Shown in pieces: positions 271-18,295 of a stretch of 20,980 bases of DNA. The notes beneath the pieces are model-generated. The model made no database searches and was not told the DNA's origin. It worked only from the letters and a program-made list of their open reading frames with translations. A program made the position numbers and the translations under genes. Location of the stretch: IMG/VR virus record IMGVR_UViG_2695420487_000014; one strand, written 5' to 3'. Within the stretch, counting starts at the first letter, position 1. Every line of letters begins with the position of its first letter. The DNA is from a virus (Duplodnaviria > Heunggongvirae > Uroviricota > Caudoviricetes).

Positions 271-766
271 GGCGATTCAAAACTGCGTGTTACGTTCGCC
301 CTGGACTGTTGCGATCGTGAAGCCATAGACTGGGCCGCAAGCACGGGAGGTTACGATAAAGCGACAGTGCAGGATGTCATGTTAGGAGCGATAGAAAAAC
401 GCTTTGGCGATAAAGTACCGGAACAGTCCATCCAGTGGCTGACAGATAACGGTTCAGCGTATAGAGCGCATGAAACATGGCAGTTCGCCAGAGAGTTGAA
501 TCTGGAGCCCTGCACAACGGCAATCAGCAGTCCTCAGAGTAATGGAATGGCAGAAAGGTTCGTGAAAACGATGAAGGAAGACTACATCGCGTTCATGCCG
601 AAACCGAATGTAAGAACGGCATTGCATAATCTTGCAGTGGCGATCGAACATTACAATGAAAACCATCCGCACAGTGCGTTGGGTTATCGCTCTCCGCGAG
701 AATATCGACGTCAGCGGGTAACGTTAACTTAAGATACACCCCCTGTCTGGAAATAAGGGGGCAAGA
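271..766 (+). mobile_element. IS2-like (IS3 family, IS2 group) element, 3' remnant: transposase OrfB C-terminal DDE/rve domain plus right terminal inverted repeat
   Basis: Frame of ORF 367..732 extended upstream reads ...[42 protein letters not shown]...[21 protein letters not shown]...[16 protein letters not shown]...[14 protein letters not shown], co-linear with remembered IS2 InsD C-terminus (about 75 percent nt identity by eye); 3' end CTGTCTGGAAATAAGGGGGCAA resembles the IS2 right IR; the N-terminal ~180 codons and the orfA of this element are missing. Confidence 0.7.
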
Positions 767-773
767 ACAATGA

Positions 774-1526
774 TCAGATTCCCTGGTGAGTAAGAATTTT
801 ACTTTCTGAACTGCTCTGAGAGTATTGACTTGGAGAAACACCAAAATAACGTCTAAATACATAAGTAAAGTATGAGACACTGGCATAACCACAGACCTTA
901 GCTACTTTACTAATAGGATAACAACGAGTGCTGAGTAAATATTCAGCCATTTGCATCCTCTCATCAAGTATGATCTTACTGAATGATACCCCCTCTTCTT
1001 TCAATTTCCTCTTTAGTAAACTTTCGCTGAGATATAATCTTGATGATATATCCTTAAGACGCCATGGTGCAGATAAATCCGTATGAATAATCGTTTTAAC
1101 TTTAGCCCCTGTGCTTTTCAAACATTCAAACAGAAATACTCCAAATTGTTTTTCAGAAGAAAATGCAGAGAGACATGTAAAAGCAATAGACTCATCAAAA
1201 ATTTCTATGTATTCAGCACAGTGATTAGCCCAACTAATTAATCCTTTAATTAAACTGAAGTCAGCAAAGTTTATTTTTAAATAAGATGGATATTCCCTAC
1301 AATCAGAAATATCCCTTAAGTTATTAGCTTTCAAATAGCGACTAATAAACTCAGCGCCAAAATCCGCCACTATCACTCTTTCAGGATATGTCAGGAAAAA
1401 ATCTCTAGAGCTAGAGTCGACAAGTACAGATGAACCTCTCTCCAGAAACACACTCTCTTTTCCGAAATAAACATCAAAGGACTCCAAAATCAATATAACT
1501 GAACATGTAGTTGCCATATCATCCAC
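774..1526 (-). CDS. AraC/XylS-family transcriptional regulator (AppY/EnvY-like), low GC
   Basis: 250-aa ORF; C-terminus ...WRLKDISSRLYLSESLLKRKLKEEGVSFSKIILDERMQMAEYLLSTRCYPISKVAKVCGYASVSYFTYVFRRYFGVSPSQY is a canonical AraC double-HTH domain, roughly 50 percent identical to the remembered AppY C-terminus; AT-rich codon usage suggests horizontal acquisition; start could be M1 (1526) or M4 (1517). Confidence 0.8.
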   Translation of the reverse strand: MDDMATTCSVILILESFDVYFGKESVFLERGSSVLVDSSSRDFFLTYPERVIVADFGAEFISRYLKANNLRDISDCREYPSYLKINFADFSLIKGLISWANHCAEYIEIFDESIAFTCLSAFSSEKQFGVFLFECLKSTGAKVKTIIHTDLSAPWRLKDISSRLYLSESLLKRKLKEEGVSFSKIILDERMQMAEYLLSTRCYPISKVAKVCGYASVSYFTYVFRRYFGVSPSQYSQSSSESKILTHQGI

Positions 1527-2101
1527 CCAACTTAACTGAAACCAGGATGAAGTATATGCATATAAAGTTCACTTTGCCAAACTTCAATATAAAAAACCAC
1601 ATAAAAAATAGGGTGTGATAAAAAATACCGTAACAATAAAGCAAAGGATTATAAATTCCGTTACAGTTACAAATGATACTCAAGAAACAATTCCTTAGGA
1701 AAAACTTATTTACAGCCAATAAGTAAGACACTTATATGATATCAAGTTTTCATAAAACATAACTAGGCTAAATAGCTGCGCCTAATACCGCTACACTTTT
1801 GCCAGCCCATGTTTGCCTCCGGGTATTGACCCCTTCTCTACGCAACTTCAGTTCCCACCACCAACTTTGCGGCAGCTTTGTAGGATCAATGTCTAAAAGA
1901 ATAATGGTGACCGATAAGAAAACGACTGAATAACTGCAAATTTTCGCTCAAAACCTTCCTGTCAGATCCATAGCGAATCAAGTGCTGAATGTCACAGTAT
2001 CGAACAGAAAACAGTGACGATCTAACCCTTCAAGAATATTCTACGATTGTTCTGTTTAGGAAAAGCAAGGCGGGAAGTCGGGAGATAAGTCATTGATAAA
2101 G

Positions 2102-2163
2102 TGGCGGAGAGAGGGGGATTTGAACCCCCGGTAGAGTTGCCCCTACTCCGGTTTTCGAGACCG
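2102..2163 (-). tRNA. Partial tRNA-Ser gene (3' ~62 nt, serU-type, from anticodon stem through CCA): att-site remnant, not a functional tRNA
   Basis: Minus-strand sequence CGGTCTCGAAAACCGGAGTAGGGGCAACTCTACCGGGGGTTCAAATCCCCCTCTCTCCGCCA matches the 3' two-thirds of E. coli tRNA-Ser(CGA) from memory; the 5' acceptor/D-arm portion is absent (upstream sequence is unrelated). Confidence 0.7.
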
Positions 2164-2906
2164 ATGATACAGAGTCGAAAAATCAAAGAGTTAAAAATTT
2201 TTCTTGGAATAAATGTCTTTAAATCGTACACGAAAAATCAATGAATTACATAACATTAAAGAAGAATATTCCAAGCCTTCTTGAGGCTACCACCTGTTTT
2301 CAGGTGTCATTCAGACGTGATTTGCCCCAGATTGGGAAAGCACGCTTTTTTCTCAGCTATCGTCCTCTTATTTTGCCGTTACATTTCTTTTTGCACTCTA
2401 ATGATTAATTTACAATAATAATATCGGTAATTATTGAGTAATAATAAATTGATTATTGCAAATGTAATTTAATTCCATCTTAGCGTTATATTCCAATCTT
2501 TAATCTCCGCATGGAACAAGTTGCATGCGTGACTATATTAAGACAACTTATAACCACCAAAACATTTGCTTTGCAAGCAAAAACAGTGACCATTGACTCT
2601 AAGAAAATTCCGATCTATTGTTAGGGTCATCAAAGTTACTTAACAGTATTCCGAAATGAAAATACAAAGCAAGCTAATTGTCTTATTAAACATTATTATT
2701 GCATTTATATTATTTGAGCTTTTAGCTCAAAAATTTGGTTTGAGTACATTATTTTAAAGCAAGGTAAACAATATCGGGCACTCTAGTTTTTATAATTAAC
2801 AATTAAACGTCCATAAAATGTTATTTACTTTTCTTCGCTATTGTCACATCTTAATATAGTGGCTTACGCCACTCTACTTTCATCACATTTTGTACGTTTA
2901 TGTACT

Positions 2907-2941
2907 CGCCATGAAGCTCTTTCATGGCGATTTTTATTCTT
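2907..2941 (+). terminator. Strong rho-independent terminator hairpin (9-bp perfect stem CGCCATGAA/TTCATGGCG, 5-nt loop, then ATTTTTATTCTT)
   Basis: Perfect inverted repeat followed by a T-run on the plus strand only; lies in an ORF-free AT-rich region. Confidence 0.5.
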
Positions 2942-3021
2942 AATCCAAGAACATACTCCCTATCTATAGCAAAATCACTTTTTGAACAAAAGAATAACGT
3001 ATTTAGGTAATCATTACGAAT

Positions 3022-3603
3022 TTACCCTATAGGTGCTACTGGCCATTCAATATCCTGTGCAGTTGACGTATCAACACGGTTCAGCAATACCCGATACTTT
3101 TTCCAGGCTTCCAGCAACAAGGTTTCTTCCTCCGTTGCGATTTCCAGATCCACAGCATCCTGAAGCGGCGCTATATGCTCACTGGCTACCTGCATCAGGC
3201 TGTTTTTTGTTTCTTCCACCTCCCGGATCCGGAACAGTTTTTCTGCTTCCGTATCCTTCACCCAGGCTGTGCCGTTCCACTTCTGAAACTCCCCTTCCGG
3301 GGATAACCAGGTAACATTTTCCGGTAATGAGCCGAGTTCAGAAATAAATAACGCGTCCCCTGATGCCACGTCATAAACTGTTTTACCCCGATGGTCTTCA
3401 ACAAGATGCCACGATGACTCATCACTGTTGAAAACAGCCACGAAGCCAGCCGGAATATCTGGCGGTGCAATATCGGTACTGTTTGCTGGCAGACCTGTAT
3501 GAGGCGGAATATATGCATCACCTTCACCAATAAATTCATTAGTTCCGGCCAGCAGATTATAAATTTTTATGGTCCGTGGTTGTTCACTCATTCTGAATGC
3601 CAT
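3022..3603 (-). CDS. tfa: Tail fiber assembly protein (Tfa, lambda Tfa / P2 gpG family)
   Basis: 193-aa [43 protein letters not shown]...; start ATG overlaps the stf stop (TAATG) as in lambda stf-tfa. Confidence 0.9.
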
Positions 3604-4874
3604 TATGCAAGCCTCACAATATAGTTAAATGCGATGTTTTTGACGGTGTTTTCCGCGTTACCAGCAGCGTTAACGGTGATGGTGTGTCCGTGTGAGCCAA
3701 TCGCAACGGAGTGCGTATGAGCACCAATACCGACAGTATGTGCATGTGCGCCTGCGCTTGCAGCAGTGCCGGACAGCGAGTGGGTATGAGCACCATCTGA
3801 TGATGTCTTCCCTGCATTACGAGTCTGGCCACTACCGCTTGTTGTGCTCATAATCCCCGCGCTTAGATTTGAAATCGCGGTATAACCATTAGGGAAAATG
3901 CTCGTGTTCGTGCCACCAAATGCACCGGAACTCTTGTGTTGGTGCGCACCGGCACTATTTGCAGTCCCGCTAATACTATGGGTATGCGCCCCGGTGTTAT
4001 TCGTGGATTTGGTTCCGTAATCAAACGACGATGTGTTTTTCGTCCCCAAATCCGTACTGGATGCGCTGGCGCTGTGGGTGTGCGATTTAATGCCGTCCTG
4101 TTCCTGAGACAATACGGCACGACCACTGGCGGGTTTGCCCTTAATCGTCCAGCCACGCATATCAGGGATCACGGCTGACGGATAAGCGGCTGCAAGTTTC
4201 GGGTATGCAGATTTGTCAAAAGTCTGCCCCTGCATCAGGGCATAGCCAGACGGAACGGTATCTGATGGCCACGGGATTGGTGCGCCAGGCGGATAAAACT
4301 GCTCTGATGGCGTATAGAGTGAATAAACTGTACCGTCCGTTAACCCTTCCGGCTTATTAGCAGAATATGCTGGTGACGTATGAATCGTCACGCTGGCATT
4401 ACTGGTATAATCCCATTGAATATTTACACCAGTCGCATAATTTCCGATTGCAACGTAAATATCGTAAGTATCACCAGATGTATTGACCCAGGCAAAATTT
4501 GTAAACCCTGTCGATGTGCGCTGCCATAAAGCACCAGTAATCCCCTTCGGATTACCATTACCTGCACGCAAAACAAGTTCAGATATACCTGCCTGTTGAG
4601 GTGACCCCACGTTAAATCCCGCGCCACCAATCAACGTAATTGAAACAACAGAACTCGCCTGTGGCATGGTTACCGTTGCTAATTTGAACCAACCAGCACC
4701 ACCGCTGAATGACATTGTTGTTGAGTTAAGCGTACCAATATCTTTCGGCGTCAGTGTTATATCCGCTGAAAGCGCCTTACCATTCACCTTACGGGCAGAA
4801 GGTAGCCAGCTCATACGCGGCCTTAACGGCTTTTGGCGTTGCCGCCAGTGACTCGGAAGTGCTGTTAGTCGCAC
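3603..4874 (-). CDS. stf: Side tail fiber protein, C-terminal receptor-binding part (P2 gpH-like tip with HxH repeats); out of frame with the upstream stf segment
   Basis: ...[75 protein letters not shown]...GAHTHS...[49 protein letters not shown] is co-linear with the remembered P2 H C-terminus; frame differs from ORF 4789..6105. Confidence 0.85.
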
Positions 4875-6046
4875 TGCTGAGCTGTACTATCCCCTTTTTC
4901 GTCGTGCTCGCATCCTCAAGCGCCACGGCGGATGCAATATCCTCTGCCCGTTTTGCTGCTGTCTCGGCGCGCGTTGCCGCGGATTCCGCCGTACTTTTGC
5001 TCTGAGCTGCCGCCGTCGCACTGCCAGCTGCCTCTGTCGCCTTCGTGGATGCCGTCGTGGCGCTGCCCTTCGCTGCTGACGCCTGTCTGGTCGTCTCATC
5101 TTTTGAAGCAGACGCCGATGATGCCGATGACGCCGCCGAACTGGCTGACGATGCGGCAGCCGTTTTTGAGGATTCTGCGCTGGTTTCCGACGCTTTCGCG
5201 TTCGTTTCGGATGTCTTCGCTGCGGAAGCTGACCTCGCTGCTGCCGTGGCCTGTTCAGTGGCTTCGCCAGCCTTCGTTGTGGCTGTTGAAGCGGATGATG
5301 CGGCGCTTTCTGCCGACTTTCCGGCAGCGGTGGCACTGGCTGAGGCCTGCCCGGCATTTGTTGACGCGGCGCTGGCAGATGAGGCAGCCGCTGTTTTTGA
5401 GTCTGCTGCTGCGGAGGCACTCTGTGCTGCTGCCGTCTCAGAAGACTTAGCGTTCGTCTCGGACGTTTTTGCCGCCTTCGCGGAATTTCCTGCCGCTGTT
5501 GCCGAGGAGGCTGCACTACTGGCGCTCGAGGCTGCGCTCGTTTCTGATGATTTTGCCGCCTCTTTTGAGGCCGCCGCATCCCGGGCTGAGGTGGCAGCTT
5601 CTGACGCCTTCGTGGTCGCGGCGGATGCAGAAGTGGCTGCTGATTGTTGTGACGCTGCCGCATTCGTTTCTGACGTTTTCGCCGCAGCGGCACTGGTAGC
5701 TGCCGCGCTTTTTGAGGACTCTGCAGCAGCAGCACTTTTCGATGCTTCACTGGCCTTTGTTGATGCCGTTCCTGCGCTGGAAGATGCTGACTGAGCAGAT
5801 GATGCAGCCTGTCCGGCTGACGTGCTGGCGGCACGAGCTGAGCCTGCAGCATCGGTTGTATGAGTTGCCGCCTCACTGGCAGATGTGCTGGCATCACTGG
5901 CTGACTTCTTCGCGGCTGCCGTGTTCTGTGCCACTGCGGACGCGTTACGCGCCACCTCTTCCACCATCAGTTCAAAACGGCGCAGAGCCTCCGGACGGGC
6001 ATCATCCTCCGTCATGGCACCGAGAAAATCATTCAGCGTACCGGGT
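4789..6046 (-). pseudogene. stf: Side tail fiber protein, central Ala/Ser-rich shaft segment (lambda Stf-like), 5'-truncated at a deletion junction and 3'-frameshifted
   Basis: ...[40 protein letters not shown]...AKTSETNAAASQQSAATSA...[29 protein letters not shown] matches lambda Stf from about residue 95 onward; the first ~20 codons of the called ORF ([20 protein letters not shown]) are Nu1 DNA read out of frame. Confidence 0.8.
4890..5900 (-). repeat. GC-rich low-complexity coding repeat (Ala/Ser/Thr-rich stf shaft; reiterated AKTSETNA / SSASSA motifs)
   Basis: Reiterated GCn/TCn-rich codon blocks visible in the sequence; generates long spurious ORFs in five other frames. Confidence 0.6.
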
Positions 6047-6406
6047 CCGCGACAACACGAAAGTACAGAATGCGGTTTCCACCACTTCAGCGGAGTCTCT
6101 GGCATTCTTCAGTTCCTGTGCGTCGGCCTGCGCACGCGTAAGTCGATGGCGTTCGTACTCAATAGTCCCTGGCTGGAGATCTGCCTCGCTGGCCTGCCGC
6201 AGTTCTTCAACCTCCCGGCGCAGCTTTTCGTTCTCAATTTCAGCATCCCTTTCGGCATACCATTTTATGACGGCGGCAGAGTCATAAAGCACCTCATTAC
6301 CCTTGCCACCGCCTCGCAGAACGGGCATTCCCTGTTCCTGCCAGTTCTGAATGGTACGGATACTCGCACCGAAAATGTCAGCCAGCTGCTTTTTGTTGAC
6401 TTCCAT
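6047..6406 (-). pseudogene. nu1: Terminase small subunit Nu1, N-terminal 120 codons (winged-helix cosB-binding domain), fused out of frame to stf by deletion
   Basis: [120 protein letters not shown] matches remembered lambda Nu1 residues 1-120, then diverges (TRYAE stop). Confidence 0.85.
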
Positions 6407-6409
6407 TGT

Positions 6410-6600
6410 TCATTCCACGGACAAAAACAGAGAAAGGAAACGACAGAGGCCAAAAAGCTCGCTTTCAGCACCTGTCGCTTCCTTTCTTTTCAGAGGGTAT
6501 TTTAAATAAAAACATTAAGTTATGACGAAGAAGAACGGAAACGCCTTAAACCGGAAAATTTTCATAAATAGCGAAAACCCGCGAGGTCGCCGCCCCGTAA
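6410..6600 (-). other. cos: cos site: cosN 12-nt cohesive-end sequence (GGGCGGCGACCT on the minus strand at 6584..6595) and cosB between cosN and the nu1 start
   Basis: Minus strand reads ...GATCCGACAGGTTACG GGGCGGCGACCT CGCGGGTTTTCGCTATTTATGAAAATTTTCCGG..., matching lambda right end / cohesive end / left end from memory. Confidence 0.75.
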
Positions 6601-6794
6601 CCTGTCGGATCGCCGGAAAGGACCCGCAAAATGATAATAATTATCATCTACATGTCACAACGTGCATCTACGCCATCAAACCACGTCAAATAATCAATTA
6701 TGACGCAGGTATCGTATTAATTGATCTGCATCAACTTAACGTAAAAACAACTTCAGACAATACAAATCAGCGACACTGAATACGGGGCAACCTC

Positions 6795-6989
6795 ATGTCT
6801 ACGAAGAACAGAACCCGCAGAACAACAACCCGCAACATCCGCTTTCCTAACCAAATGATTGAACAAATTAACATCGCTCTTGAGCAAAAAGGGTCCGGGA
6901 ATTTCTCAGCCTGGGTCATTGAAGCCTGCCGTCGGAGACTAACGTCAGAAAAGAGAGCATATACATCAATTAAAAGTGATGAAGAATGA
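6795..6989 (+). CDS. ylcI: Small prophage protein, YlcI-like (DUF3950), 64 aa
   Basis: MSTKNRTRRTTTRNIRFPNQMIEQINIALEQKGSGNFSAWVIEACRRRLTSEKRAYTSIKSDEE; position between cos and bor as in DLP12. Confidence 0.6.
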   Translation: MSTKNRTRRTTTRNIRFPNQMIEQINIALEQKGSGNFSAWVIEACRRRLTSEKRAYTSIKSDEE

Positions 6990-7153
6990 ACATCCCGCGT
7001 TCTTCCCTCCGAACAGGACGATATTGTAAATTCACTTAATTACGAGGGCATTGCAGTAATTGAGTTGCAGTTTTACCACTTTCCTGACAGTGACAGACTG
7101 CGTGTTGGCTCTGTCACAGGCTAAATAGTTTGAATGATTAGCAGTTATGGTGA

Positions 7154-7360
7154 TCAGTCAACCACCAGGGAATAATCCTTCATATTATTATCGTGCTTCA
7201 CCAACGCTGCCTCAATTGCTCTGAATGCTTCCAGAGACACCTTATGTTCTATACATGCAATTACAACATCAGGGTAACTCATAGAAATGGTGCTATTAAG
7301 CATATTTTTTACACGAATCAGATCCACGGAGGGATCATCAGCAGATTGTTCTTTATTCAT
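7154..7360 (-). CDS. ybcW: Small prophage protein, YbcW-like, 68 aa
   Basis: [68 protein letters not shown]; GGAG Shine-Dalgarno upstream of the ATG at 7360. Confidence 0.55.
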
Positions 7361-7645
7361 TTTGTCGCTCCATGCGCTTGCTCTTCATCTAGCGGTTAAA
7401 ATATTACTTCAAATCTTTCTGTATGAAGATTTGAGCACGTTGGCCTTACATACATCTGTCGGTTGTATTTCCCTCCAGAATGCCAGCAGGACCGCACTTT
7501 GTTACGCAACCAATACTATTAAGTGAAAACATTCCTAATATTTGACATAAATCATCAACAAAACACAAAGAGGTCAGACCAGATTGAAACGATAAAAACG
7601 ATAATGCAAACTACGCGCCCTCGTATCACATGGAAGGTTTTACCA

Positions 7646-8056
7646 ATGGCTCAGGTTGCCATTTTTAAAGAAATATTCGATCAAGTGCGAAAAGATTTAA
7701 ACTGTGAATTGTTTTATTCTGAACTAAAACGTCACAACGTCTCACATTATATTTACTATCTAGCCACAGATAATATTCACATCGTGTTAGAAAACGATAA
7801 CACCGTGTTAATAAAAGGACTTAAAAAGGTTGTAAATGTTAAATTCTCAAGAAACACGCATCTTATAGAAACGTCCTATGATAGGTTGAAATCAAGAGAA
7901 ATCACATTTCAGCAATACAGGGAAAATCTTGCTAAAGCAGGAGTTTTCCGATGGGTTACAAATATCCATGAACATAAAAGATATTACTATACCTTTGATA
8001 ATTCATTACTATTTACTGAGAGCATTCAGAACACTACACAAATCTTTCCACGCTAA
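7646..8056 (+). CDS. ybcV: YbcV-like protein (DUF1398), 136 aa from the ATG with the best RBS (ORF is open from 7523)
   Basis: [50 protein letters not shown]...; GGAAGG Shine-Dalgarno ~10 nt upstream of the ATG at 7646; the upstream in-frame GTG/ATG starts lack an RBS. Confidence 0.6.
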
Positions 8057-8346
8057 ATCATAACGTCCGGTTTCTTCCGTGTCAGCACCGGGGCGTTGGC
8101 ATAATGCAATACGTGTACGCGCTAAACCCTGTGTGCATCGTTTTTAATTATTCCCGGACACTCCCGCAGAGAAGTTCCCCGTCAGGGCTGTGGACATAGT
8201 TAATCCGGGAATACAATGACGATTCATCGCACCTGACATACATTAATAAATATTAACAATATGAAATTTCAACTCATTGTTTAGGGTTTGTTTAATTTTC
8301 TACACATACGATTCTGCGAACTTCAAAAAGCATCGGGAATAACACC

Positions 8347-8640
8347 ATGAAAAAAATGCTACTCGCTACTGCGCTGGCCCTGCTTATTACAGGATGTGCT
8401 CAACAGACGTTTACTGTTCAAAACAAACCGGCAGCAGTAGCACCAAAGGAAACCATCACCCATCATTTCTTCGTTTCTGGAATTGGGCAGAAGAAAACTG
8501 TCGATGCAGCCAAAATTTGTGGCGGCGCAGAAAATGTTGTTAAAACAGAAACCCAGCAAACATTCGTAAATGGATTGCTCGGTTTTATTACTTTAGGCAT
8601 TTATACTCCGCTGGAAGCGCGTGTGTATTGCTCACAATAA
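8347..8640 (+). CDS. bor: Bor lipoprotein (serum-resistance-associated outer membrane lipoprotein), 97 aa
   Basis: MKKMLLATALALLITGCAQQTFTVQNKPAAVAPKETITHHFFVSGIGQKKTVDAAKICGGAENVVKTETQQTFVNGLLGFITLGIYTPLEARVYCSQ matches lambda Bor; lipobox LITGC; oriented opposite to the lysis genes as in lambda. Confidence 0.9.
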   Translation: MKKMLLATALALLITGCAQQTFTVQNKPAAVAPKETITHHFFVSGIGQKKTVDAAKICGGAENVVKTETQQTFVNGLLGFITLGIYTPLEARVYCSQ

Positions 8641-8671
8641 TTGCATGAGTTGCCCATCGATATGGGCAACT

Positions 8672-9133
8672 CTATCTGCACTGCTCATTAATATACTTCT
8701 GGGTTCCTTCCAGTTGTTTTTGCATAGTGATCAGCCTCTCTCTGAGGGTGAAATAATCCCGTTCAGCGGTGTCTGCCAGTCGGGGGGAGGCTGCATTATC
8801 CACGCCGGAGGCGGTGGTGGCTTCACGCACTGACTGACAGACTGCTTTGATGTGCAACCGACGACGACCAGCGGCAACATCATCACGCAGAGCATCATTT
8901 TCAGCTTTCGCATCAGCTAACTCCTTCGTGTATTTTGCATCGAGCGCAGCAACATCACGCTGACGCATCTGCATGTCAGTAATTGCCGCGTTCGCCAGCT
9001 TCAGTTCTCTGGCATTTTTGTCGCGCTGGGCTTTGTAGGTAATGGCGTTATCACGGTAATGATTAACAGCCCATGACAGGTAGACGATGATGCAGATAAC
9101 CAGAGCGGAGATAATCGCGGTTACTCTGTTCAT
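8672..9133 (-). CDS. Rz: Spanin inner-membrane subunit Rz (i-spanin), lambda type
   Basis: [80 protein letters not shown]... nearly identical to remembered lambda Rz; ATG at 9133 overlaps the R stop (ATGA). Confidence 0.9.
8731..8913 (-). CDS. Rz1: Spanin outer-membrane lipoprotein subunit Rz1 (o-spanin), embedded in Rz in the +1 frame
   Basis: [60 protein letters not shown] matches lambda Rz1; lipobox VVGC and proline-rich stalk. Confidence 0.85.
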
Positions 9134-9627
9134 TGCTGACCCCACAAACAGATTTCACGCTCAATCTCACGACGAGTCATGAGACCTTTCCATTGCTTAC
9201 CGCCAGCATATGTCCAGCGACGTAGCTGATCACATGCGCCTTTGATATCGCCCTGGTTTATTTTGCGAAGAAGCGTCGATGTTCTGAAATTGCCAGCACC
9301 CACGTTGTAAACGAATGAGTAAAGAGCGCCGCGCGTTGTTTCCGGTATATCGACTTTGATGTACGGGTTAATTTGTCTGGCGACAGTGGCAAGGTCTTTA
9401 TTCAAGAGTGCTTTGCATTCTGCTTTGGTATACGTTTTACCGAGCATGATGTCTTTTCCGGTGTGTCCGTGACATACAGTCCATACGCCAACGATATCTT
9501 TGTATGGTACGTAGCTGACACCTTCCAGACCATCGTTACCACTTGGGCCAGTAATTAACACTGATGCTATAGCAATTGCTCCGCCACCAATAGCAGCAGC
9601 AACGGCTTTTCGTAATGATGGAGGCAT
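9130..9627 (-). CDS. R: SAR endolysin (T4-lysozyme-family muramidase with N-terminal signal-anchor-release domain), phage 21 R / DLP12 RrrD type
   Basis: [57 protein letters not shown]...; Gly/Ala-rich weakly hydrophobic N-terminal SAR helix; ATG overlaps the holin stop (TAATG). Confidence 0.9.
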
Positions 9628-9842
9628 TATTCACCTCTCGCAGCCTTGCGCTTATCTTCTTTAATCTTGAAATAAAGGTTTGTCAGGTACGTCAGCAGGC
9701 CAAATACCAGGCTACCCAGCACACCTATTGCTGCCCACTGTGAGGGCGTGACTTTATCGAGCAGCTGTAAAAACCAGTAACCGGCACTACCTGCTGAGGT
9801 GCCATAGGCGACACCCGTTGTTAACTTATCCATGGATTTCAT
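9627..9842 (-). CDS. S: Pinholin (class II holin, phage 21 S21 / DLP12 EssD type), 71 aa with dual-start motif (M1, M4)
   Basis: [71 protein letters not shown]; the called ORF extends to 9887 but the conserved start is the ATG at 9842. Confidence 0.85.
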
Positions 9843-10429
9843 AACCCCACCTCGCAGACAAAGCGGGTGTAAATTGAGGGAATACAACGTATCGCAAAAA
9901 AGCAGAAACTTAACAGACTCGGAGTCAGTGAATAACTCAGGTATTGGGTTATCAGCTAATATCGAGACTCAAAAAATGGAAAAACCCGCTCGACGGCGGG
10001 TTTAAGCTGTGTGACGAAGTAACCACTCTTAACAGCATAACCAATTTTTTACGTACGTAAACCACTAAATGATATTTGCGAGAATGCTACCGAGTATTGA
10101 AAACACCACTACAAATACATAAGCAAATCTCAACAAATAACCAACAAATAATTTCCAGCGTTATTTTTAGCTGGTTTAAATTGAATCTTCAAATTATAGA
10201 GCACTTATAAATAACAGCCATTAATATAAATTGGCTAATAGATTTATTTTTATTCAGCCAAGAGCCATGAATAGGATTCGATAGAAAAAGTTCAGATAAA
10301 AATAGAGATCTACTTCACAAATCAAATGAGAAACCAAAACTTACATCTTGAAATAATCACATTGATTAGATGAATATTTATCGCGCAGTGACATCATTTT
10401 TTAATAATAGTTCAAAAAAAGGGCTCACG

Positions 10430-11512
10430 ATGAAAAAATTAACAGTGGCAATTTCTGCTGTAGCTGCATCAGTACTGATGGCGATGTCTGCTCAGGCAGC
10501 TGAAATTTATAATAAAGACAGTAACAAGCTGGATCTGTACGGGAAAGTTAATGCTAAGCACTACTTCTCCTCTAATGATGCAGATGATGGTGATACTACT
10601 TATGCCCGTCTTGGGTTCAAAGGTGAAACCCAAATCAACGATCAACTGACTGGTTTCGGTCAGTGGGAATATGAATTCAAAGGCAACCGCGCTGAATCTC
10701 AAGGTTCCTCCAAAGATAAAACCCGTCTTGCCTTCGCTGGCCTGAAATTCGGTGACTACGGCTCCATCGATTATGGCCGTAACTACGGTGTAGCATACGA
10801 TATTGGTGCATGGACCGACGTTCTGCCAGAATTCGGTGGCGATACCTGGACCCAAACAGATGTATTCATGACTGGTCGCACCACAGGTGTTGCAACTTAT
10901 CGTAACAATGACTTCTTTGGTCTGGTTGATGGTCTGAACTTTAGTGCTCAGTATCAGGGTAAAAATGACCGCACTGACGTAACTGAAGCTAATGGTGATG
11001 GTTTCGGTTTCTCCACTACTTATGAGTATGAAGGATTCGGTGTAGGTGCAACCTATGCTAAATCTGACCGCACTAATAATCAGGTTATCTACGGTAACAA
11101 CAGCCTGAATGCATCTGGTCAAAATGCTGAAGTATGGGCAGCTGGTCTGAAATATGATGCGAACAACATCTATCTGGCTACCACCTATTCTGAAACCCAG
11201 AACATGACTGTTTTTGGTAATAACCATATTGCCAACAAAGCACAAAACTTCGAAGTAGTTGCACAATATCAGTTCGACTTCGGTCTGCGTCCGTCCGTTG
11301 CTTACCTGCAATCTAAAGGAAAAGACTTGGGTGCGTGGGGTGATCAGGACCTGGTTGAATATATTGATGTAGGTGCAACCTATTACTTCAACAAAAATAT
11401 GTCCACTTTTGTTGATTACAAAATCAACCTGATTGATAAGAGCGATTTCACGAAAGCATCTGGCGTTGCTACCGATGATATCGTTGCTGTAGGTATGGTT
11501 TACCAGTTCTAA
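10430..11512 (+). CDS. nmpC: Outer membrane porin NmpC/OmpD family (OmpC paralogue), apparently intact
   Basis: [23 protein letters not shown] signal peptide, then [24 protein letters not shown]... and C-terminal ...[12 protein letters not shown] (terminal Phe beta-barrel signature); located between Q and S on the opposite strand as in DLP12. Confidence 0.9.
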
Positions 11513-11649
11513 TTTGATTACTAAAAGATATGTTGCGGGAGGCTTTGCCTCCCCAACATATAAGTGGCTCCCTCCAGCCACTTCCTTTAGGAGCACAACC
11601 TTGCTTCTAACTATATAAACCTTCTGTTATATATTACCCTTTATTTTTG

Positions 11650-11674
11650 GGGGCGTCTCAACGCCCCATTTTTA
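11650..11674 (+). terminator. Rho-independent terminator (GGGGCG-TCTCAA-CGCCCC followed by ATTTTTAATAATTTTT), probably the nmpC transcript terminator
   Basis: 6-bp GC stem, 6-nt loop and T-run, ~140 nt downstream of the nmpC stop. Confidence 0.5.
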
Positions 11675-11700
11675 ATAATTTTTAGTAAACAATTGGCATA

Positions 11701-12084
11701 TTAATTAGAGTTATTAACAACGATATCCATCTCTAACCGGATATCTAATGCCATTAACATCCCTTCAATTATACCCTCAGCCTTCTGTAACCTTTTCCCG
11801 ATATAACCATCAGAGCAGCAATGCTTACCTGCCAGTGACATGAATGTCATACCGACTACATAATAATCTACTAATAAATCGTGCAAATCGCTGTTGTTCT
11901 TTTTCAGACGGGCCATGCACCCGCAAATGATCATCGCGTCATCGTCACAACATTGCGGGCGAGATTTTACTTTTGAAGTAATTAATCCCTTAAAACCGGC
12001 GGCAATGGACGACCAGGTCACATCTTCATGATTATTAGCCGCCCACGCTCCCCAACGCTCAAGAACCATCTGAATATCACGCAT
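11701..12084 (-). CDS. quuD: Late-gene antiterminator Q (phage 82 / DLP12 QuuD type), 127 aa
   Basis: [94 protein letters not shown]...; GGAG Shine-Dalgarno 8 nt upstream of the ATG at 12084 (the called ORF starts at an upstream TTG). Confidence 0.85.
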
Positions 12085-12169
12085 CAACTTACTCCACAAA
12101 AATCAGACCAGAACGCCAATTACAAGCAAAAATCAATAAAACAGTATTAGTTGATTGTTATCTCTGACT

Positions 12170-12310
12170 TCATACTCCTGCTCCTGTCAGGGTTTTGGCG
12201 TAATTCCTCAGTATTCGGTAATCGGTCAAAACAGAACTGGGGAAACGATATAAGCGCAGGCGCATCCAGCGGTGGCGAAGAAGTTCTGCCATATTAAACT
12301 CAAACATCAT
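12170..12310 (-). CDS. ylcG: Small nin-region protein, YlcG-like, 46 aa
   Basis: [46 protein letters not shown]; start overlaps the rusA stop; recalled as present between rusA and quuD in DLP12. Confidence 0.45.
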
Positions 12311-12669
12311 TCATTCCCCATTTCGGTGATGGTCAGTTCCAGCCTCCCACCTTTGGTAACAGGCATCTTCACAACGCGGTAATCAACGACCTGAGCATCA
12401 TCCAGCCAGAAACCTGCTTTGGTGAGTGCGTCAAAAGCGGCTTTTTGCAGATTATCCAGGTCACGGCGACGGCGATCCGGCATGTGGCACTCAATACGGA
12501 TTTTCACTGGCATAGCCAGGCCGATATCCAGCATTGCGTTTTTAATGATTCGGGTGACGTTATCGCGGTATGCCTGCCCTTCTGCGCTGATGTGTGTGCG
12601 CCCGCGATTATGGCGGTAATAGCGATTATTGCTCGGAGGCCAGGGTAATGTGATGCTGTAGGTATTCAC
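12307..12669 (-). CDS. rusA: Holliday-junction resolvase RusA
   Basis: [120 protein letters not shown]; GTG start overlapping the ybcO stop (GTGA). Confidence 0.9.
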
Positions 12670-12956
12670 GCCTTAATAACCCCCTCTTTCAGCCAGATAA
12701 CCTGTGTTCTCGCCATACCTTCCAGCGCGCATTCTTTTGCATATGCAGCATCGACAAAATGTGTGCGGCGGTCGATTTCGTCGTGGCAGGCAGAACATGC
12801 AATGGTGGCAATCAGGTCTGGCGGTTTCGTACCGGTGCCGCACAATCCAGTCAGCCGGATATGTGCCAGTACAGACGTTTCAGGGTTGCCATTACATACG
12901 CCAGGGATTCTTACCTGGCATTCCCGACCACGCGCTGCTTTTCTCAAATCAGCCAT
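12666..12956 (-). CDS. ybcO: YbcO-like nin-region protein (DUF1364; Cys-rich putative nuclease), 96 aa
   Basis: [96 protein letters not shown]; the called ORF extends upstream to 12995. Confidence 0.75.
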
Positions 12957-13119
12957 GACTCCTCCTTGCTGCCAGTCGCAACCATTTTTTATCAACCAGG
13001 CTGGCGGTATATCCGAGCAGTGTTGGTATTTCGGAAGGCTTCAGCTCCGGTTTACGCTTACGACGATTTGGTACTCTGTAGATGTGTCCGTTCATGACAC
13101 GAATAAGCGGTGTAGCCAT
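12949..13119 (-). CDS. ninE: NinE-like protein, 56 aa (below the ORF-track size cutoff)
   Basis: [56 protein letters not shown]; ATG shares a base with the ybcN stop (TAATG); 3' end overlaps the ybcO start. Confidence 0.65.
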   Translation of the reverse strand: MATPLIRVMNGHIYRVPNRRKRKPELKPSEIPTLLGYTASLVDKKWLRLAARRSHG

Positions 13120-13574
13120 TACGCCTCCTGTTTGTCGCGGAGCTGCTGGAACTCGCAGCTCTGCGGAATAGTCAGGTGGCAGCCAATATTCACCGCCCAG
13201 GCTTCAACCTTACACAGGAAGATATACATCTCTCCGGTATCAAGATCGGAGGTATGGCGTAACGACTGGATAGTAGTGATTTCGCCGGTTACGACATCAA
13301 CCAGGTCCTTGGTTTCATAACCGAGGTATGTGTGTTTGAGAGCATCTTTTACCCATGCTGCGGTAGCGAACGATTTCCCCCTGCTGATGAGGTATTCACT
13401 GATTTCGCTGTACCACATGTGGCTGAGTGCATTCTGGGAAAGACTGCGTTTCTCACGCCACGGTTTAAGCACCATGCGAAAGCATTTTCCGTCCTCCAGA
13501 TAAGGCTGGATCTGCTGGCCGATAGCGGTGAAGTTACCGCGATGCAGTTTGATGCCATCTTGTGGTAGGTTCAC
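13119..13574 (-). CDS. ybcN: YbcN-like nin-region protein (DUF1367), 151 aa
   Basis: [69 protein letters not shown]...; GTG start. Confidence 0.8.
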
Positions 13575-13672
13575 GCTTCACCTCCGCAGAGGTCAGACGC
13601 TGGATGCAAAAAATCGCAGGTGCATTTCTGCATCTGTGAAGGGAGAAGAGAGTTTGGATTGTATGTGCGCAT
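13571..13672 (-). CDS. ylcH: Small ORF, YlcH-like, 33 aa
   Basis: [33 protein letters not shown]; its stop overlaps the ybcN GTG start (GTGA); assignment rests on recollection of a short gene upstream of ybcN in DLP12. Confidence 0.35.
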
Positions 13673-13764
13673 AAACGTCCCCGTTTAGCGCAGAAGTCAC
13701 CGGAGTTGTTCAAGCTCCGATGACTTTATTATTACGAATTGATTTTACAAAATCAAAAGGTATG

Positions 13765-14217
13765 TTAGTGACGCGGGTCTGTTATTATGCGAGAAGGGTT
13801 TCCGTATAAAACAAGGACCTTACTTCCTTGAGTAAATAACGGATCTTTGCCTTGAACAATGGTCATTAAATTCCCATTCTCAGTTTCGACAACATATTCC
13901 ATGCCTGTTTGTTTTGTTGCTGAAGATTCGATTGCTGCCCCGGCAATACCACCAATGACTGCACCACCAACGGCACCAACGATATTAGAACGAACTCCCC
14001 CACCAAGCGCAGAACCAGCGGTTGCCCCCACGGCAGCCCCAGCAGTCCCGCCTAACGCGGAAGTCCCACTGATATCAACCCCCCTAGCACTAATAACTGT
14101 ACCAGCGATAGTTCGATTAACCATGCCCACAGAGCCAACAGAATAACTATTTGGCGATATATTTTGTGCGCATCCAACCAACACTAAGAGTGGAGCAATT
14201 ACGAATAATCGCTTCAT
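13765..14217 (-). CDS. Outer-membrane lipoprotein with glycine-zipper domain, SlyB/Pcp-like, 150 aa
   Basis: Lipobox LVGC; central Gly/Ala zipper GGTAGAAVGATAGSALGGGVRSNIVGAVGGAVIGGIAGAAI; C-terminal ...GNLMTIVQGKDPLFTQGSKVLVLYG parallels the SlyB C-terminal beta segment; ATG overlaps the stop of the upstream lipoprotein gene (ATGA). Confidence 0.7.
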   Translation of the reverse strand: MKRLFVIAPLLVLVGCAQNISPNSYSVGSVGMVNRTIAGTVISARGVDISGTSALGGTAGAAVGATAGSALGGGVRSNIVGAVGGAVIGGIAGAAIESSATKQTGMEYVVETENGNLMTIVQGKDPLFTQGSKVLVLYGNPSRIITDPRH

Positions 14218-14774
14218 TTAGCTACCCTAACAGGAAACATTGGACGAGAAAGATCAACACTTTCTAATGCTTGCAAGAACTGCGTTATGTTGTTTTGCAC
14301 CGCGCGATTAACAGATTCGCGTGCTCGAACAATACCGTAGAATGCGTAACTGGCTGGAACAGTACCGGTAGACTCAATATCCTGCGTATATATAATATCA
14401 CCATTCGCACGGTTGATTATTTCATACCTTGCAATTGCTTTAGTTGTCATTGAAACACCAAAAGCAGGAACGTCAAGAGCCAACACTTTAACATTTAAGC
14501 TAACCGTATTTGGTGAACTATCACGAAAAATAGTCATTCGGTCGAGTGCTTCCTGCAAAGATTCACGCCAAATTGGAGTTATAGCCTCCATACCAGCAGT
14601 GATATCCCCTTTCTGCTCATCTGGACGAGCAAGTGATACCGTTAATGACTTAATTTCAGCATCTATTTTTTTCTGGCTAACTCCCACGTTAGGTGTTGAA
14701 AAATTCAATGGTGGCACACTAGCGCAACCTGTTAAAGAACCAATAATCATGGCTAATAATATTATCTTCTTCAT
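14214..14774 (-). CDS. Lipoprotein of unknown function, 186 aa (first gene of a two-lipoprotein operon)
   Basis: MKKIILLAMIIGSLTGCASVPP... with lipobox LTGC; AAGG Shine-Dalgarno 6 nt upstream; translationally coupled to the SlyB-like gene. Confidence 0.7.
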   Translation of the reverse strand: MKKIILLAMIIGSLTGCASVPPLNFSTPNVGVSQKKIDAEIKSLTVSLARPDEQKGDITAGMEAITPIWRESLQEALDRMTIFRDSSPNTVSLNVKVLALDVPAFGVSMTTKAIARYEIINRANGDIIYTQDIESTGTVPASYAFYGIVRARESVNRAVQNNITQFLQALESVDLSRPMFPVRVAK

Positions 14775-15030
14775 AAATTTACCTTATTGTTATAACCAAA
14801 GGAATTATAAAGTAAAAAAGTTCACTATCACTAGCCATTAACGACATCAATTTCAGAGAAACATGGTACTCATTTCCACAAATTTGACACAAGTCATTTT
14901 CACCTACATATTCCATCATACTTGATGCATATGTTATTGAAGCCTCTATCCTATCCGTTCATAATAGCAATAGTTACCCGGGTGATAGTACCTCTATGAT
15001 TACTCGTCTTTCTGATTGATTGGATTAAAT

Positions 15031-15222
15031 ATGCGCGCCAAAATTTATCAACTTTCGTTATGGATATTTATTTCGTTTCTAGCGATCTATGCCTTTATTA
15101 TCTATAAAGGTTCTTATATTGGAGTAGCATTGCATCAAATTGCTTGGATCATCATTATTGCCTCTGGCTTGATTGCTAGGCTAACTAAACCAAAGCAAAA
15201 ACCAATTTCGTCCAATAATTAG
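15031..15222 (+). CDS. Possible small two-helix membrane protein, ~63 aa from the ATG (ORF open from TTG at 15016)
   Basis: MRAKIYQLSLWIFISFLAIYAFIIYKGSYIGVALHQIAWIIIIASGLIARLTKPKQKPISSNN: two hydrophobic helices and a basic tail; divergent from the lipoprotein operon; weak RBS and AT-rich, so it may be a chance ORF. Confidence 0.3.
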   Translation: MRAKIYQLSLWIFISFLAIYAFIIYKGSYIGVALHQIAWIIIIASGLIARLTKPKQKPISSNN

Positions 15223-15379
15223 ACATGTATTAAAAAAATGATATTTTTATGTACATAGTCTATTGAAAATTGCCGCGATAAAATGCCAACACCCGCTTCA
15301 TCGCGGCACTCTGGCGACACTCCTTGAAAATCAGATTCGTGCTCACCTTTCCTTCCCGTTCTTCCCTGGTAGCGAACCG

Positions 15380-15827
15380 GTAATCATCCGATCTGCGTTA
15401 CCGAGTGGATGGATGAATGCCGCCGCGAACCATTCAAAACCCGCGAAGGCAGAGAAATTACGGGGCCGTGGCAGTCGCATCCCAAACGGATGTTACGGCA
15501 TAAAGCCATGATTCAGTGGCCCGTCTGGCCTTCGGATTTGCTGGTATCTATGACAAGGATGAAGCCGAGCGCATTGTCGAAAATACCGCATACACCGCAG
15601 AACGTCAGCCGGAACGCGACATTACTCCGGTTAACGATGAAACCATGCAGGAGATTAACACTCTGCTGATTGCCCTGGACAAAACATGGGATGACGACTT
15701 ATTGCCGCTCTGTTCCCAGATATTTCGCCGCGACATTCGCGCATCGTCAGAACTGACACAGGCCGAAGCAGTGAAAGCTCTTGGATTCCTGAAACAGAAA
15801 GCCACTGAGCAGAAGGTGGCAGCATGA
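15380..15827 (+). pseudogene. bet: Recombination protein Bet (lambda RecT-like), C-terminal ~150 codons only, with a 1-bp deletion frameshift near 15517
   Basis: NHPICVTEWMDECRREPFKTREGREITGPWQSHPKRMLRHKAMIQ in one frame and ARLAFGFAGIYDKDEAERIVENTAYTAERQPERDITPVNDETMQEINTLLIALDKTWDDDLLPLCSQIFRRDIRASSELTQAEAVKALGFLKQKATEQKVAA in the next, together matching remembered lambda Bet; upstream of ~15380 homology is lost. Confidence 0.85.
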
Positions 15828-15880
15828 CACCGGACATTATCCTGCAGCGTACCATCGATTGTGCTGACACTGCTGGATGA
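15824..15880 (+). pseudogene. exo: Exonuclease Exo 5' stub (first ~10 codons MTPDIILQRT, then unrelated sequence and a stop after 18 codons)
   Basis: ATG overlaps the bet stop in the lambda arrangement (GCAGCATGACACCGG); downstream sequence does not continue as exo. Confidence 0.5.
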
Positions 15881-16302
15881 ACGGGAAAGAAACCAGCAGT
15901 ACATCAAACGCCGCGACCAGGAGAACGAGGATATTGCGCTAACGGTGAGGAAACTGCGTGTTGAGCTGGAGACAGCAAAAATCAAAACTCAACGAGCAGC
16001 GTGAGTAGAAGGTGTTATCTCGGATGGAAGTAAGCGTATTGCTGAAATGGAGGCCTGGGTTGAATACACAAGAGCTGCATACGTAAGAGCAAAAGACAAG
16101 GGAGATTTGATCAGAGTTATTACCCGACAACCAACGGGATTTTACGCTTACGTACCATGTAATTAGGAATCCTTGAAGTGGCAGCCTAACTGCGGATACA
16201 CTGAAATGGCGATTTGGTAACATGTTTCGCACAAGGCTGTTACTACGCTTAAAGATAATCAGCCATGATTAAACGCTTTGTAAAAAGTAAAAGGAAATTA
16301 CA

Positions 16303-16917
16303 ATGAAAAAATCAATACTAATTTTAGGGCTTACGTTAATTGTCTCATCTCAAATACCATCGGCAATGGCAAAAAATGAATCAAGACTTTGGGTTGTTGT
16401 TGATCGAACGGAAAGACATACCTGCCCTTCAAGTAAATGTGGAGTGGCTGGGAAACTATTTTTCAGGGAAGGCGTAGATTTTCTAGAAAAAAAAGGTGAA
16501 TGGGTTCGTATAACTGAGCCATATTCAGCCTCATGTGTGGGAGGGGAAAGCGAATATATTAAAGAAGGTAATAAATCCTGCACAAGAAAAAACGGAATCG
16601 TCAATGGCAAGTTTTCAGAATGGGTTAAACTTAGTGATCTTAGCAGTGAAAGGCCATCAGATCCTGCTGAAAATGCGAGCGGAGATGATACTTTAATCAA
16701 AGGATCTGATGACTACCGTATATACAAAAAAGAGTTTTCTTCGGCAGCTAGGAAGTTAATAAACGAAGGGGTCTGCACGGAAAGCGACTTTAAGGAAATC
16801 GGAGGGTGGATGGCATCAAGCAATAAGGGGAAAAACATCTATTTCACATATTGCGGAGGAATGACGTTGTCGAACAGAATATACCTAGACGTTAAAAGTG
16901 GAAAGACTTTTAGATAA
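16303..16917 (+). CDS. Secreted protein of unknown function, 204 aa, low GC, Cys-containing
   Basis: Signal peptide MKKSILILGLTLIVSSQIPSAMA (AMA then K, SPase I type, no lipobox); 8 Cys in the mature part; N-terminal segment RLWVVVDRTERHTCPSSKCGVAGKLFFREGVDFLEKKGEWVRI is SH3b-like by eye. Confidence 0.6.
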   Translation: MKKSILILGLTLIVSSQIPSAMAKNESRLWVVVDRTERHTCPSSKCGVAGKLFFREGVDFLEKKGEWVRITEPYSASCVGGESEYIKEGNKSCTRKNGIVNGKFSEWVKLSDLSSERPSDPAENASGDDTLIKGSDDYRIYKKEFSSAARKLINEGVCTESDFKEIGGWMASSNKGKNIYFTYCGGMTLSNRIYLDVKSGKTFR

Positions 16918-16988
16918 TATGATATTACCAATGACAGTATTAATTTAATGCCTCCATAGAATTATCTCTAGGAAGTATGTATAAGAAA

Positions 16989-17025
16989 AGCCCGCACAAT
17001 GAGCTGCTGCGGGCTTTGTGTTATT
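16989..17025 (+). terminator. Probable rho-independent terminator of the 204-aa gene (8-bp stem AGCCCGCA/TGCGGGCT, then TTGTGTTATT)
   Basis: Inverted repeat plus T-rich tail ~70 nt downstream of the stop. Confidence 0.45.
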
Positions 17026-17577
17026 CGCCATATTTTATGAAGCAAATACGACACTATAGATAATTAAGCGTTGCTGGTTGTCGATTCCTCACTCACTCCT
17101 GTTGATGGCTCTCTTCTTGTATGTGCCATTGAAGGGTAATATCGAGTAAAAAGATACCGGAAGTATCCGCGCCGCCATGATTGTCTTTCTCCTAATGCAG
17201 GAAAAGCAGAATGGCTAAATCATCAGCAGAGCGCAAAGTCGATCAGAGAGCCAAGCAAGCATCATCCGGTATGCGTAAGCTGGAGCTTGTACTTGATGCT
17301 CAGGAAATTGAAATGCTGGATCGTAACTGAGCCACGCGCCGCTTCAGGCATGCGCCTTACGAGTTTGGTGAGTACATCGCGTTACTGAGCCGCCAGGATG
17401 ATGCACGTGTGCGCTAGCGTATAAAATCGATCAGCAGAAAACGTTGCGGTAAGTGCGGCGAGAGAGTTCCTGTTAATTCATGCCCGTGTAATGGTGACTC
17501 ACAATGCTGGGTGACCAAAGGCTGGCACGAAACAAAATTAATGATATAAATCTCTGTGACATGTCACGGAGGCGGCA

Positions 17578-18006: not shown

Positions 18007-18088
18007 TTCTTAGCATCAGCAACTACTGCCTTTGGTGGAAATTATATCTGAACTCGCTACGGCGAGTTTTGTTTTATGGAGATGATAA

Positions 18089-18256
18089 ATGCACTTCCGA
18101 GTCACAGGTGAATGGAATGGAGAACCATTCAACAGAGTTATCGAAGCAGAGAACATCAATGACTGCTATGACCACTGGATGATATGGGCGCAGATAGCAC
18201 ATGCAGACATAACCAATATTCGAATTGAAGAACTGAAAGAACACCAAGCCGCCTGA
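18089..18256 (+). CDS. Small 55-aa ORF immediately upstream of xis (position of lambda orf55)
   Basis: MHFRVTGEWNGEPFNRVIEAENINDCYDHWMIWAQIAHADITNIRIEELKEHQAA; GGAG Shine-Dalgarno 8 nt upstream; below the ORF-track size cutoff. Confidence 0.45.
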   Translation: MHFRVTGEWNGEPFNRVIEAENINDCYDHWMIWAQIAHADITNIRIEELKEHQAA

Positions 18257-18271: not shown

Positions 18272-18295
18272 GCGTGTAATTGCGGAGACTTTGCG

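Follow-up and report, generated by a model that had tools for sequence, protein, structure and literature searches.

Phage lambda packages its DNA from concatemers (PMC4856287, PMC2231350, PMC6092414), and terminases of the cos type depend on a second cos to bring packaging to its end (PMC6687093). When there is no second cos, DNA is left sticking out of the head, and no tail can be attached (PMC6687093, PMC4856287, PMC2231350). The functional complete cos used experimentally is a 238-bp insert, lambda 48446-182 (PMC4856287), of which the cosQ part serves in the termination of packaging (PMC4669245). The lower packaging limit is ~38 kb, and cos plasmids of 20 kb have been packaged in vitro only as 40-kb dimers (PMC9764419). 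A cloned lambda cos renders plasmids transferable (PMC6092414). Gram-negative PICIs of the cos type use the terminase and capsids of a lambda or phi80 helper and are packaged in multimeric form into heads of full size (Fillol-Salom et al. 2018, PMC6092414; Murialdo and Feiss 2022, PMC9026076); as they replicate and form concatemers, they meet the requirement of the terminase (PMC6092414). In O157 Sakai, the defective prophage Sp4 is packaged in trans by the terminase of another prophage, Sp14 (Asadulghani et al. 2009, PMC2669165).

Here, we describe a defective lambdoid prophage carried on a stretch of 20,980 nucleotides, to which we refer throughout as the window. The element keeps a cos site of the lambda type together with int, xis, and att sites, a combination from which the original prediction had concluded that it could be excised and then packaged by a superinfecting helper. 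In our analysis, this cos is likely a passive relic of a decayed lambda-family prophage and not the signature of a satellite.

The window is near-identical to a region of E. coli JNQH497, from which 12 mismatches and 1 indel separate it. It also matches SCPM-O-B-12142, except that an IS1 interrupts the correspondence in stf and the lengths differ by a net 102 bp; it is not identical to any listed genome. In JNQH497 the element sits between ybhB/bioA and ybhC, which is the classical lambda attB. From core to core it measures 19,875 bp, or 41% of lambda.

The 12-nt cohesive-end sequence of lambda, GGGCGGCGACCT, has just one exact match in the window (6584-6595, minus strand), for which dinucleotide shuffles gave a chance expectation of 0.04 matches per window. 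By blastn, window 6046-6595 corresponds to lambda 551-1 with 99.27% identity, and window 6596-9133 corresponds to lambda 48502-45966 with 99.29% identity. Because these two matches adjoin, the window contains the joined lambda ends, with lambda orientation on the minus strand. The whole cos-bearing lambda-like stretch comes to ~3.1 kb at 99.3% identity and is collinear with lambda across the joined ends. A lambda left-end bp p converts to window position 6596-p, or to 6597-p past a 1-bp deletion at lambda 138. The complete lambda-type cos interval, made up of cosQ, cosN, I2, and cosB, occupies 6415-6652 on the minus strand and is equivalent by alignment to lambda 48446-182. Its cosN cohesive end corresponds to lambda bp 1-12 and has lambda-identical flanks. 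The cosQ heptamer GGGTCCT lies at 6619-6625 (minus strand), identical to lambda 48473-48479 and at the lambda spacing to cosN; its exact coordinates are reportedly those given by Cue and Feiss.

The subsites of cos were mapped by the definitions of Feiss and co-workers (PMC4669245, PMC4856287, PMC9026076). On the minus strand, four of them are identical to lambda: I2 at 6546-6578 (lambda bp 18-50; extent from PMC4856287); R3, the critical binding site of TerS (Nu1), at 6531-6546 (lambda bp 50-65; extent and importance per PMC9026076); I1, the IHF site region between R3 and R2, at 6488-6530 (PMC4669245); and the TerS site R1 at 6431-6446 (lambda 151-166). The inverted TerS site R2, CTGTCGCTTCCTTTCT, at 6472-6487 on the plus strand (lambda 109-124), carries one substitution, A118G. 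The nu1 start codon is at 6406 on the minus strand. Between lambda 48487 and bp 117, a segment that covers cosN, I2, R3, and I1, the alignment contains zero differences. The 238-bp cos as a whole differs from lambda in six places, namely, C48459T, C48467T, A48471G, and T48486C, all of which fall outside the cosQ heptamer, A118G, and a 1-bp deletion of G138 between R2 and R1. Five of the six, all but A118G, are also present in phage Turner, which came from surface water, and in phage PhiR11_1, which was propagated on MG1655.

Judged by its sequence, the site has what defines a lambda-type cos, a 12-bp cohesive end within a partly symmetric cosN and a cosQ at lambda spacing, as well as the complex cosB arrangement R3-I1-inverted R2-R1 with a cosN-R3 distance as in lambda. 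It is essentially intact and not a chance match. The original prediction of an exact cohesive end with cosQ- and cosB-like flanks upstream of a truncated nu1 is thus confirmed by the lambda alignment. The span that it assigned to the site, 6410-6600, does contain cosN and cosB but stops ~20 bp short of cosQ. A scan for promoters and terminators around cos and nu1' returned weak consensus matches only.

The gene next to cos is no longer complete. The truncated nu1 (6029-6406, minus strand) encodes residues 1-120 of lambda Nu1 followed by TRYAE and a stop, and the Pfam model Phage_Nu1 matches over positions 1-121 of 164, with the C-terminal TerL-binding part absent. A first deletion junction is found at 6046, where blastn places lambda bp 551 (nu1) against ~19895 (stf/orf-401); missing at this junction are A, W, B, C, Nu3, D, E, FI, FII, Z-J, and lom (lambda 552-19894). 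On its far side, the annotation of JNQH497 gives a frameshifted side-tail-fiber gene, stf' (3603-6045, minus strand), and an intact tail-fiber assembly gene, tfa (3022-3603, minus strand; Pfam Caudo_TAP). An Rfam match to IS009 lies inside tfa at 3062-3260 (minus strand), scoring 218 bits where the gathering score is 117. At the second junction, 15380-15384, ren' (lambda ~40449) is joined to bet' (~32473), and gam, kil, cIII, N, rexAB, cI, cro, cII, O, P, and ori are gone; the two flanks are annotated in JNQH497 as partial ren and partial RecT. The overlaps in the lambda alignments are minimal, with 1 bp at 6046 and 5 bp at 15380-15384. By blastn against lambda, these two junctions account for all missing functions, in agreement with the predicted origin by deletion. 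The accompanying claim that all packaging and structural genes are lacking stands for lambda 552-19894 but needs correction for the frameshifted stf and the intact tfa that remain.

Between the junctions, a DLP12-type module with the order nin-quuD-porin-essD-rrrD-rzpD is followed by a lambda-like Rz-bor-cos segment. The DLP12-type late module (8672-12084, minus strand) includes quuD at 11701-12084 and essD, rrrD, and rzpD at 8672-9842. Between quuD and essD there is an intact porin gene of the OmpC/NmpC type (10430-11512, within an interval of 10370-11512, plus strand; Pfam Porin_1, E = 1.4e-152). Its homologue in K-12 DLP12, nmpC, is split by IS5, whereas the porin gene of the window is intact. 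An AraC-family regulator gene (774-1526, minus strand) occupies the slot that appY holds in DLP12; it is located between the tail-fiber genes and attR and is flanked by IS3-family transposase fragments, including one at 70-732. In the nin region (13765-14774, minus strand), there are two adjacent small ORFs of 150 and 186 aa, which are possibly morons; one of them matches a glycine zipper weakly, and for the other the annotation of one genome gives a YajG-family lipoprotein. Hypothetical ORFs number two or three in the element and are small, lipoprotein-like, or without an assigned function. Pfam models, scanned against ten ORFs, revealed neither a replication or primase function nor one resembling AlpA or Rpp, and the annotation of JNQH497 includes no replication gene, helper-responsive regulator, or packaging-redirection gene.

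The recombination functions have fared better than this. The xis gene (18296-18514, plus strand) is full length with 1 substitution relative to lambda. The int gene (18492-19562, plus strand) is also full length, encoding 356 aa with 5 substitutions relative to lambda, none at a residue known to be catalytic. Its product is 99.7% identical to the Int proteins of phages ev099, mEp332, and PhiR70_1. The attL site (19556-19650, minus strand) has an exact 15-bp core, GCTTTTTTATACTAA, at 19636-19650 and a P' arm equal to that of lambda. The core of attR, ACTTTTTTATACTAA, was read in near-identical genomes, where it lies 224-238 bp left of the window start. Both attL (BOP') and attR (POB') carry the 7-bp overlap TTTATAC. 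The attR core has a single change, outside the overlap, and this yields a CAACTT C site that we take to fit the core-type consensus. The P1 arm site of attR is unchanged, and its IHF H2 consensus (TATCAACGACTTA) is kept. Most of the P-arm differences from lambda are common to 434, HK97, and ev099, and the attR allele of the element has ~20 private positions in the vicinity of H2 and the core. The predicted integrity of attL, int, and xis was therefore borne out, with the exact core, the lambda P' arm, and only 5 and 1 substitutions in Int and Xis, and the check proposed for attR found a plausible site before the window start with its overlap and P1 kept. It is plausible that attR is intact enough to function and that the element could be excised if given Int and Xis. 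With pL, N, and cII deleted, and no early promoter or regulator left, there is no known way for the element to induce its own int and xis, so a lambda-type helper would have to supply them.

Packaging makes further demands. Since O, P, and ori are deleted and no replicon is left, the element cannot make concatemers, and, since its 19,875 bp are below the ~38-kb limit, packaging would be restricted to dimers. Such a dimer would have 39.75 kb, or 82% of lambda, which is inside the packageable range; the classical length rule for lambda gives 78-105%. We scanned JNQH497 in the packaging direction, from nu1' to stf', attR, ybhB, bio, and uvrB, and found no second exact cosN within 57 kb downstream of cos. 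The nearest cosN-like 12-mer with 1 mismatch, CGGCGGCGACCT, is in ybiT, on the same strand and ~57 kb from cos; this is beyond the capacity of the lambda head, and the match is probably due to chance.

We also looked for traces of the excised form. The excised attP junction (P arm, core, and P') had 0 matches in 2.9 million viral contigs, 0 in 241 million metagenome contigs, and 0 in 32 million genome contigs of a one-genome-per-species set. As a control, the integrated attR junction had 8 matches, in 5 metagenome and 3 IMG/VR contigs, and no match in the one-genome-per-species set. The nu1-stf junction was absent from the viral contigs. The three IMG/VR contigs with the integrated attR junction are 33-44 kb long (1-6 kb of each was viewed), and they include the host B' arm, which marks them as provirus predictions and not as packaged DNA; they might hold less-degraded versions of the element.

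The negative results on replicon, size, second cos, and excision are each weak singly, and together they point in the same direction. Neither the annotation nor the Pfam scan places in the element what would be expected of a satellite or PICI, that is, a replication module of its own yielding concatemers, a helper-responsive regulator, and a redirection gene. A cosmid-like molecule would have two cos 38-51 kb apart, and the element has a single cos on a 19,875-bp monomer. The satellite or cos-transducing behavior put forward in the original prediction is thus not supported for an element that has no replicon, is 41% of lambda in size, lacks a second exact cosN within 57 kb downstream, and showed no attP junction in the contigs searched.

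Prophage decay would account for the locus as follows. A lambda-family phage would have integrated at attB-lambda, between ybhB/bio and ybhC, and would then have decayed by deletion, one event taking the early, immunity, and replication region and others taking the terminase, head, and tail genes. Both large deletions are consistent with illegitimate recombination, as opposed to site-specific or IS-mediated loss. Because the deletions happened to end inside nu1, the 240-bp cos would have been kept nearly unchanged. A terminase of lambda specificity, if provided in trans, should be able to bind cosB and nick cosN in the chromosome, and a helper could bring about three outcomes. In the first, the chromosomal cut by terminase would be followed by an abortive packaging run toward bio without termination. 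This situation of one cos (doc) is reportedly the classical case of Sternberg and Weisberg. After cos is cut, complex I protects the nu1 side, and the cosQ side is exposed to nucleases (PMC4856287). In the second, two excised circles would fuse, and the rare 39.75-kb dimer would be packaged. In the third, a helper lysogenized in tandem on the ybhC side (attL) would create a ~40.8-kb cos-to-cos segment that leads from the helper cos through A to J, att, and the element from int through R to the element cos (27.7 + 13.05 kb). Termination of this segment would need just the exact cosQ and cosN, and the configuration mirrors the passive tandem-prophage assay of Feiss; the opposite tandem order would give only 27.6 kb and so fall short of a packageable length. 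Each of the three routes would be rare, and an element using them would not be self-propagating. With the trans-packaging of Sp4 by Sp14 as a precedent (PMC2669165), rare passive mobilization of the element with a helper is possible.

The alternative that holds up best goes beyond this and regards the locus as a helper-dependent mobile element, for which a lambda-type helper would supply or trigger Int/Xis and give terminase and capsids, such that the element is excised, cut at cos, packaged, and transferred along with its cargo of porin, bor, and AraC regulator. We consider it improbable, even though a good part of the necessary equipment is there. The cosQ, cosN, I2, R3, I1, and R1 of the element are intact, and a prophage that has its full set of terminase and head genes (strain 214-4) shares the R2 allele. 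The attL site is perfect, attR is plausible, and Int is near-identical to that of sequenced phages. The 39.75-kb dimer is of packageable length, as with the 20-kb cos plasmids packaged as dimers in vitro (PMC9764419), and precedents exist in Sp4/Sp14 of O157 Sakai (PMC2669165) and in plasmid transfer via a cloned lambda cos (PMC6092414). Against this, there is no replicon to produce concatemers, the loss of pL, N, and cII prevents the element from inducing its own int and xis, and the monomer amounts to 41% of lambda. No excised attP junction of the element was found in public contigs, its family decays without a sign of adaptation or any Rpp, AlpA, or primase-type genes, and establishment in a recipient would again require Int in trans.

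A more modest form of this proposal is mobilization at low frequency, in which a helper of lambda specificity would provide Int, Xis, terminase, and capsids, and the element would exit either as a 39.75-kb dimer, joined head to tail through homologous recombination or the action of Int, or as the ~40.8-kb hybrid ending at its own cosQ/cosN. This is unlikely as well. If true, a replication-dead fragment would remain a vehicle for the porin, bor, and AraC-regulator cargo, and mobilization would explain the survival of cos, int, xis, and both att sites through repeated deletions. It would also extend the idea of a "defective prophage pool" to elements without even a replicon and would be a natural route by which cos phages move chromosomal cargo.

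It could also be argued that the cos is dead and that A118G and the G138 deletion block productive TerS binding, leaving a helper terminase unable to use the site. A118G, at window 6478, converts the R2 16-mer CTGTCGTTTCCTTTCT into CTGTCGCTTCCTTTCT. When the CGTTTCC cores are aligned, its position is equivalent to R3 bp 55, with which the segment contacted by TerS, R3 bp 55-63, begins (PMC9026076), and the change was present in 0 of 87 matching phage records. Both of these observations favor a dead site, which we nevertheless judge quite improbable. The G138 deletion is shared with the viable phages Turner and PhiR11_1, R1 is only accessory (PMC4669245), and the transition of a conserved base is milder in R2 or R1 than in R3 (PMC4669245, PMC9026076). 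Termination at this cos would in any case require just cosQ and cosN, both of which are exact. In addition, an identical 251-bp cos with A118G is found in 22 complete E. coli genomes. One prophage, that of strain 214-4 (NZ_CP025840 141116-159366), has a 304-bp cos identical to the one in the window, A118G included, beside full-length nohD and genes for the terminase large subunit, portal, protease, decoration, capsid, and tail proteins. The A118G allele would thus be older than the decay and is probably compatible with packaging. The 214-4 prophage differs from the element in its lysis region, where a gene for a GIY-YIG nuclease is found, and it has an O gene that the annotation marks as partial.

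That cos and Nu1(1-120) act as an anti-phage decoy, poisoning an incoming lambda-type terminase as the Rpp of PICIs does, is very improbable: the fragment keeps the wHTH DNA-binding domain and the dimer interface (residues 11-13, 43, 47, and 51) without the C-terminal TerL-binding domain (PMC9026076), but it is found in only 7 genomes, its expression would require late transcription, and sister copies with full-length or 171-aa NohD make the nu1 truncation one of several arbitrary deletion endpoints.

Decay of a lambda-family prophage can be followed in the relatives of the element. These form a family of ~24 among 5,426 complete E. coli genomes, with ~99.9% mutual identity. The ren'/bet' junction is present in 18 genomes and a ren'/exo variant is present in 6 more, while only 7 of the 5,426 have the exact nu1-stf junction. 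E. coli B is known to carry a defective lambdoid at att-lambda; we considered whether the element is this prophage and rejected the identification, as none of the seven records listed with the nu1-stf junction bears the name of a B strain. At least four different structures of the late-region deletion exist in the family. In the window and 7 listed genomes, nu1 (120 aa) is joined to stf'; in PEC1009, nohD (171 aa) is joined to lom', with a full-length stf thereafter; in E423, nohD and A' (88 aa) are joined directly to the AraC-family gene; and in CM2010-0578/1, MS 124-1, and RM10410, nohD and A' (350 aa) are joined to the C-terminal part of stf. Some copies have also received IS1 or ISEc52 insertions.

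Changes have reached cos itself in certain members. RM10410 carries G48497A adjoining the nick, and MS 124-1 has a 1-bp deletion in I1. The 304-bp cos of CM2010-0578/1 has six clustered changes, C53T (in R3), A73G, T102C, 118A, A137G, and C151T, several of which match the K-12 DLP12 allele, with a divergence of ~0.1% elsewhere; this patch is a probable gene conversion between two cryptic prophages of one genome. Taken together, the pattern of the family is that of a vertically inherited, eroding remnant. Despite independent deletions, cos is kept in 7 of 7 family members examined, and int and xis are kept in all 6 of the members that extend that far, although this retention is weak evidence for mobilization because most members were found via cos or a nearby junction. 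For the same reason, and as a divergence of ~0.1% amounts to too few substitutions, selection on cos cannot be judged from this set.

The finding mostly documents ordinary prophage decay. The ~24 near-identical remnants, with at least four late structures and two early junctions, make up a natural series for studying how lambda-type prophages erode. There is also a lesson for annotation: an intact cos along with att, int, and xis is insufficient for calling a satellite, and size, replicon, and second cos should be checked as well.

How the element stands relative to the known systems can now be summarized. PICIs such as EcCICFT073 resemble it in being chromosomal and in having a lambda-like cosQ and cosN (PMC6092414; PMC9026076). 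They differ in having their own replicon (pri-rep), an AlpA inducer, Rpp redirecting TerS, and a cos without the phage cosB, whereas the element has a normal lambda cosB and no replicon, inducer, or redirection gene. In cosmids and in the passive tandem prophages of the Feiss helper-packaging assay, a repressed or non-replicating chromosomal cos-to-cos segment, or a cos plasmid multimer, is packaged by helper terminase. These need two cos 38-51 kb apart on one molecule, and the element offers one, with no second exact cosN within 57 kb downstream. Sp4 is likewise a defective lambdoid; its Nu1 gene is disrupted, and its cos matches the one found in a competent relative, but it is amplified by regional replication from a neighboring prophage and is near phage size (PMC2669165), unlike the element with its 19.9 kb and no known route of amplification. 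The cos of lambda itself (cosQ-cosN-I2-R3-I1-R2-R1) is matched in architecture, spacing, and sequence, with six differences in 238 bp; what sets the window apart from lambda is the private transition in R2 and the absence of a working terminase operon after cos.

The closest counterpart is the cos-nohD region of DLP12 of K-12, with nohA in Qin as a relative. DLP12 is also a lambdoid remnant without head genes, in which a Nu1 homologue is preceded by an exact GGGCGGCGACCT together with cosQ and three R sites, and it shares the module quuD-essD-rrrD-rzpD-bor-ybcV-ybcW-ylcI, such that window 6046-11454 is 95.9% identical. It is located at argU with its own integrase, and it has a full-length nohD and a cos with extra changes, including C53T in R3; the element, in contrast, is at att-lambda with int, xis, and att of the lambda type and has a truncated nu1. 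Of 5,426 complete E. coli genomes, 4,590 contain a lambda-type cos beside a Nu1 homologue, which is mostly annotated as nohD; the median is 2 places per genome. An intact cos in a lambdoid remnant is therefore, as the example of DLP12 shows, of an already known and common kind.
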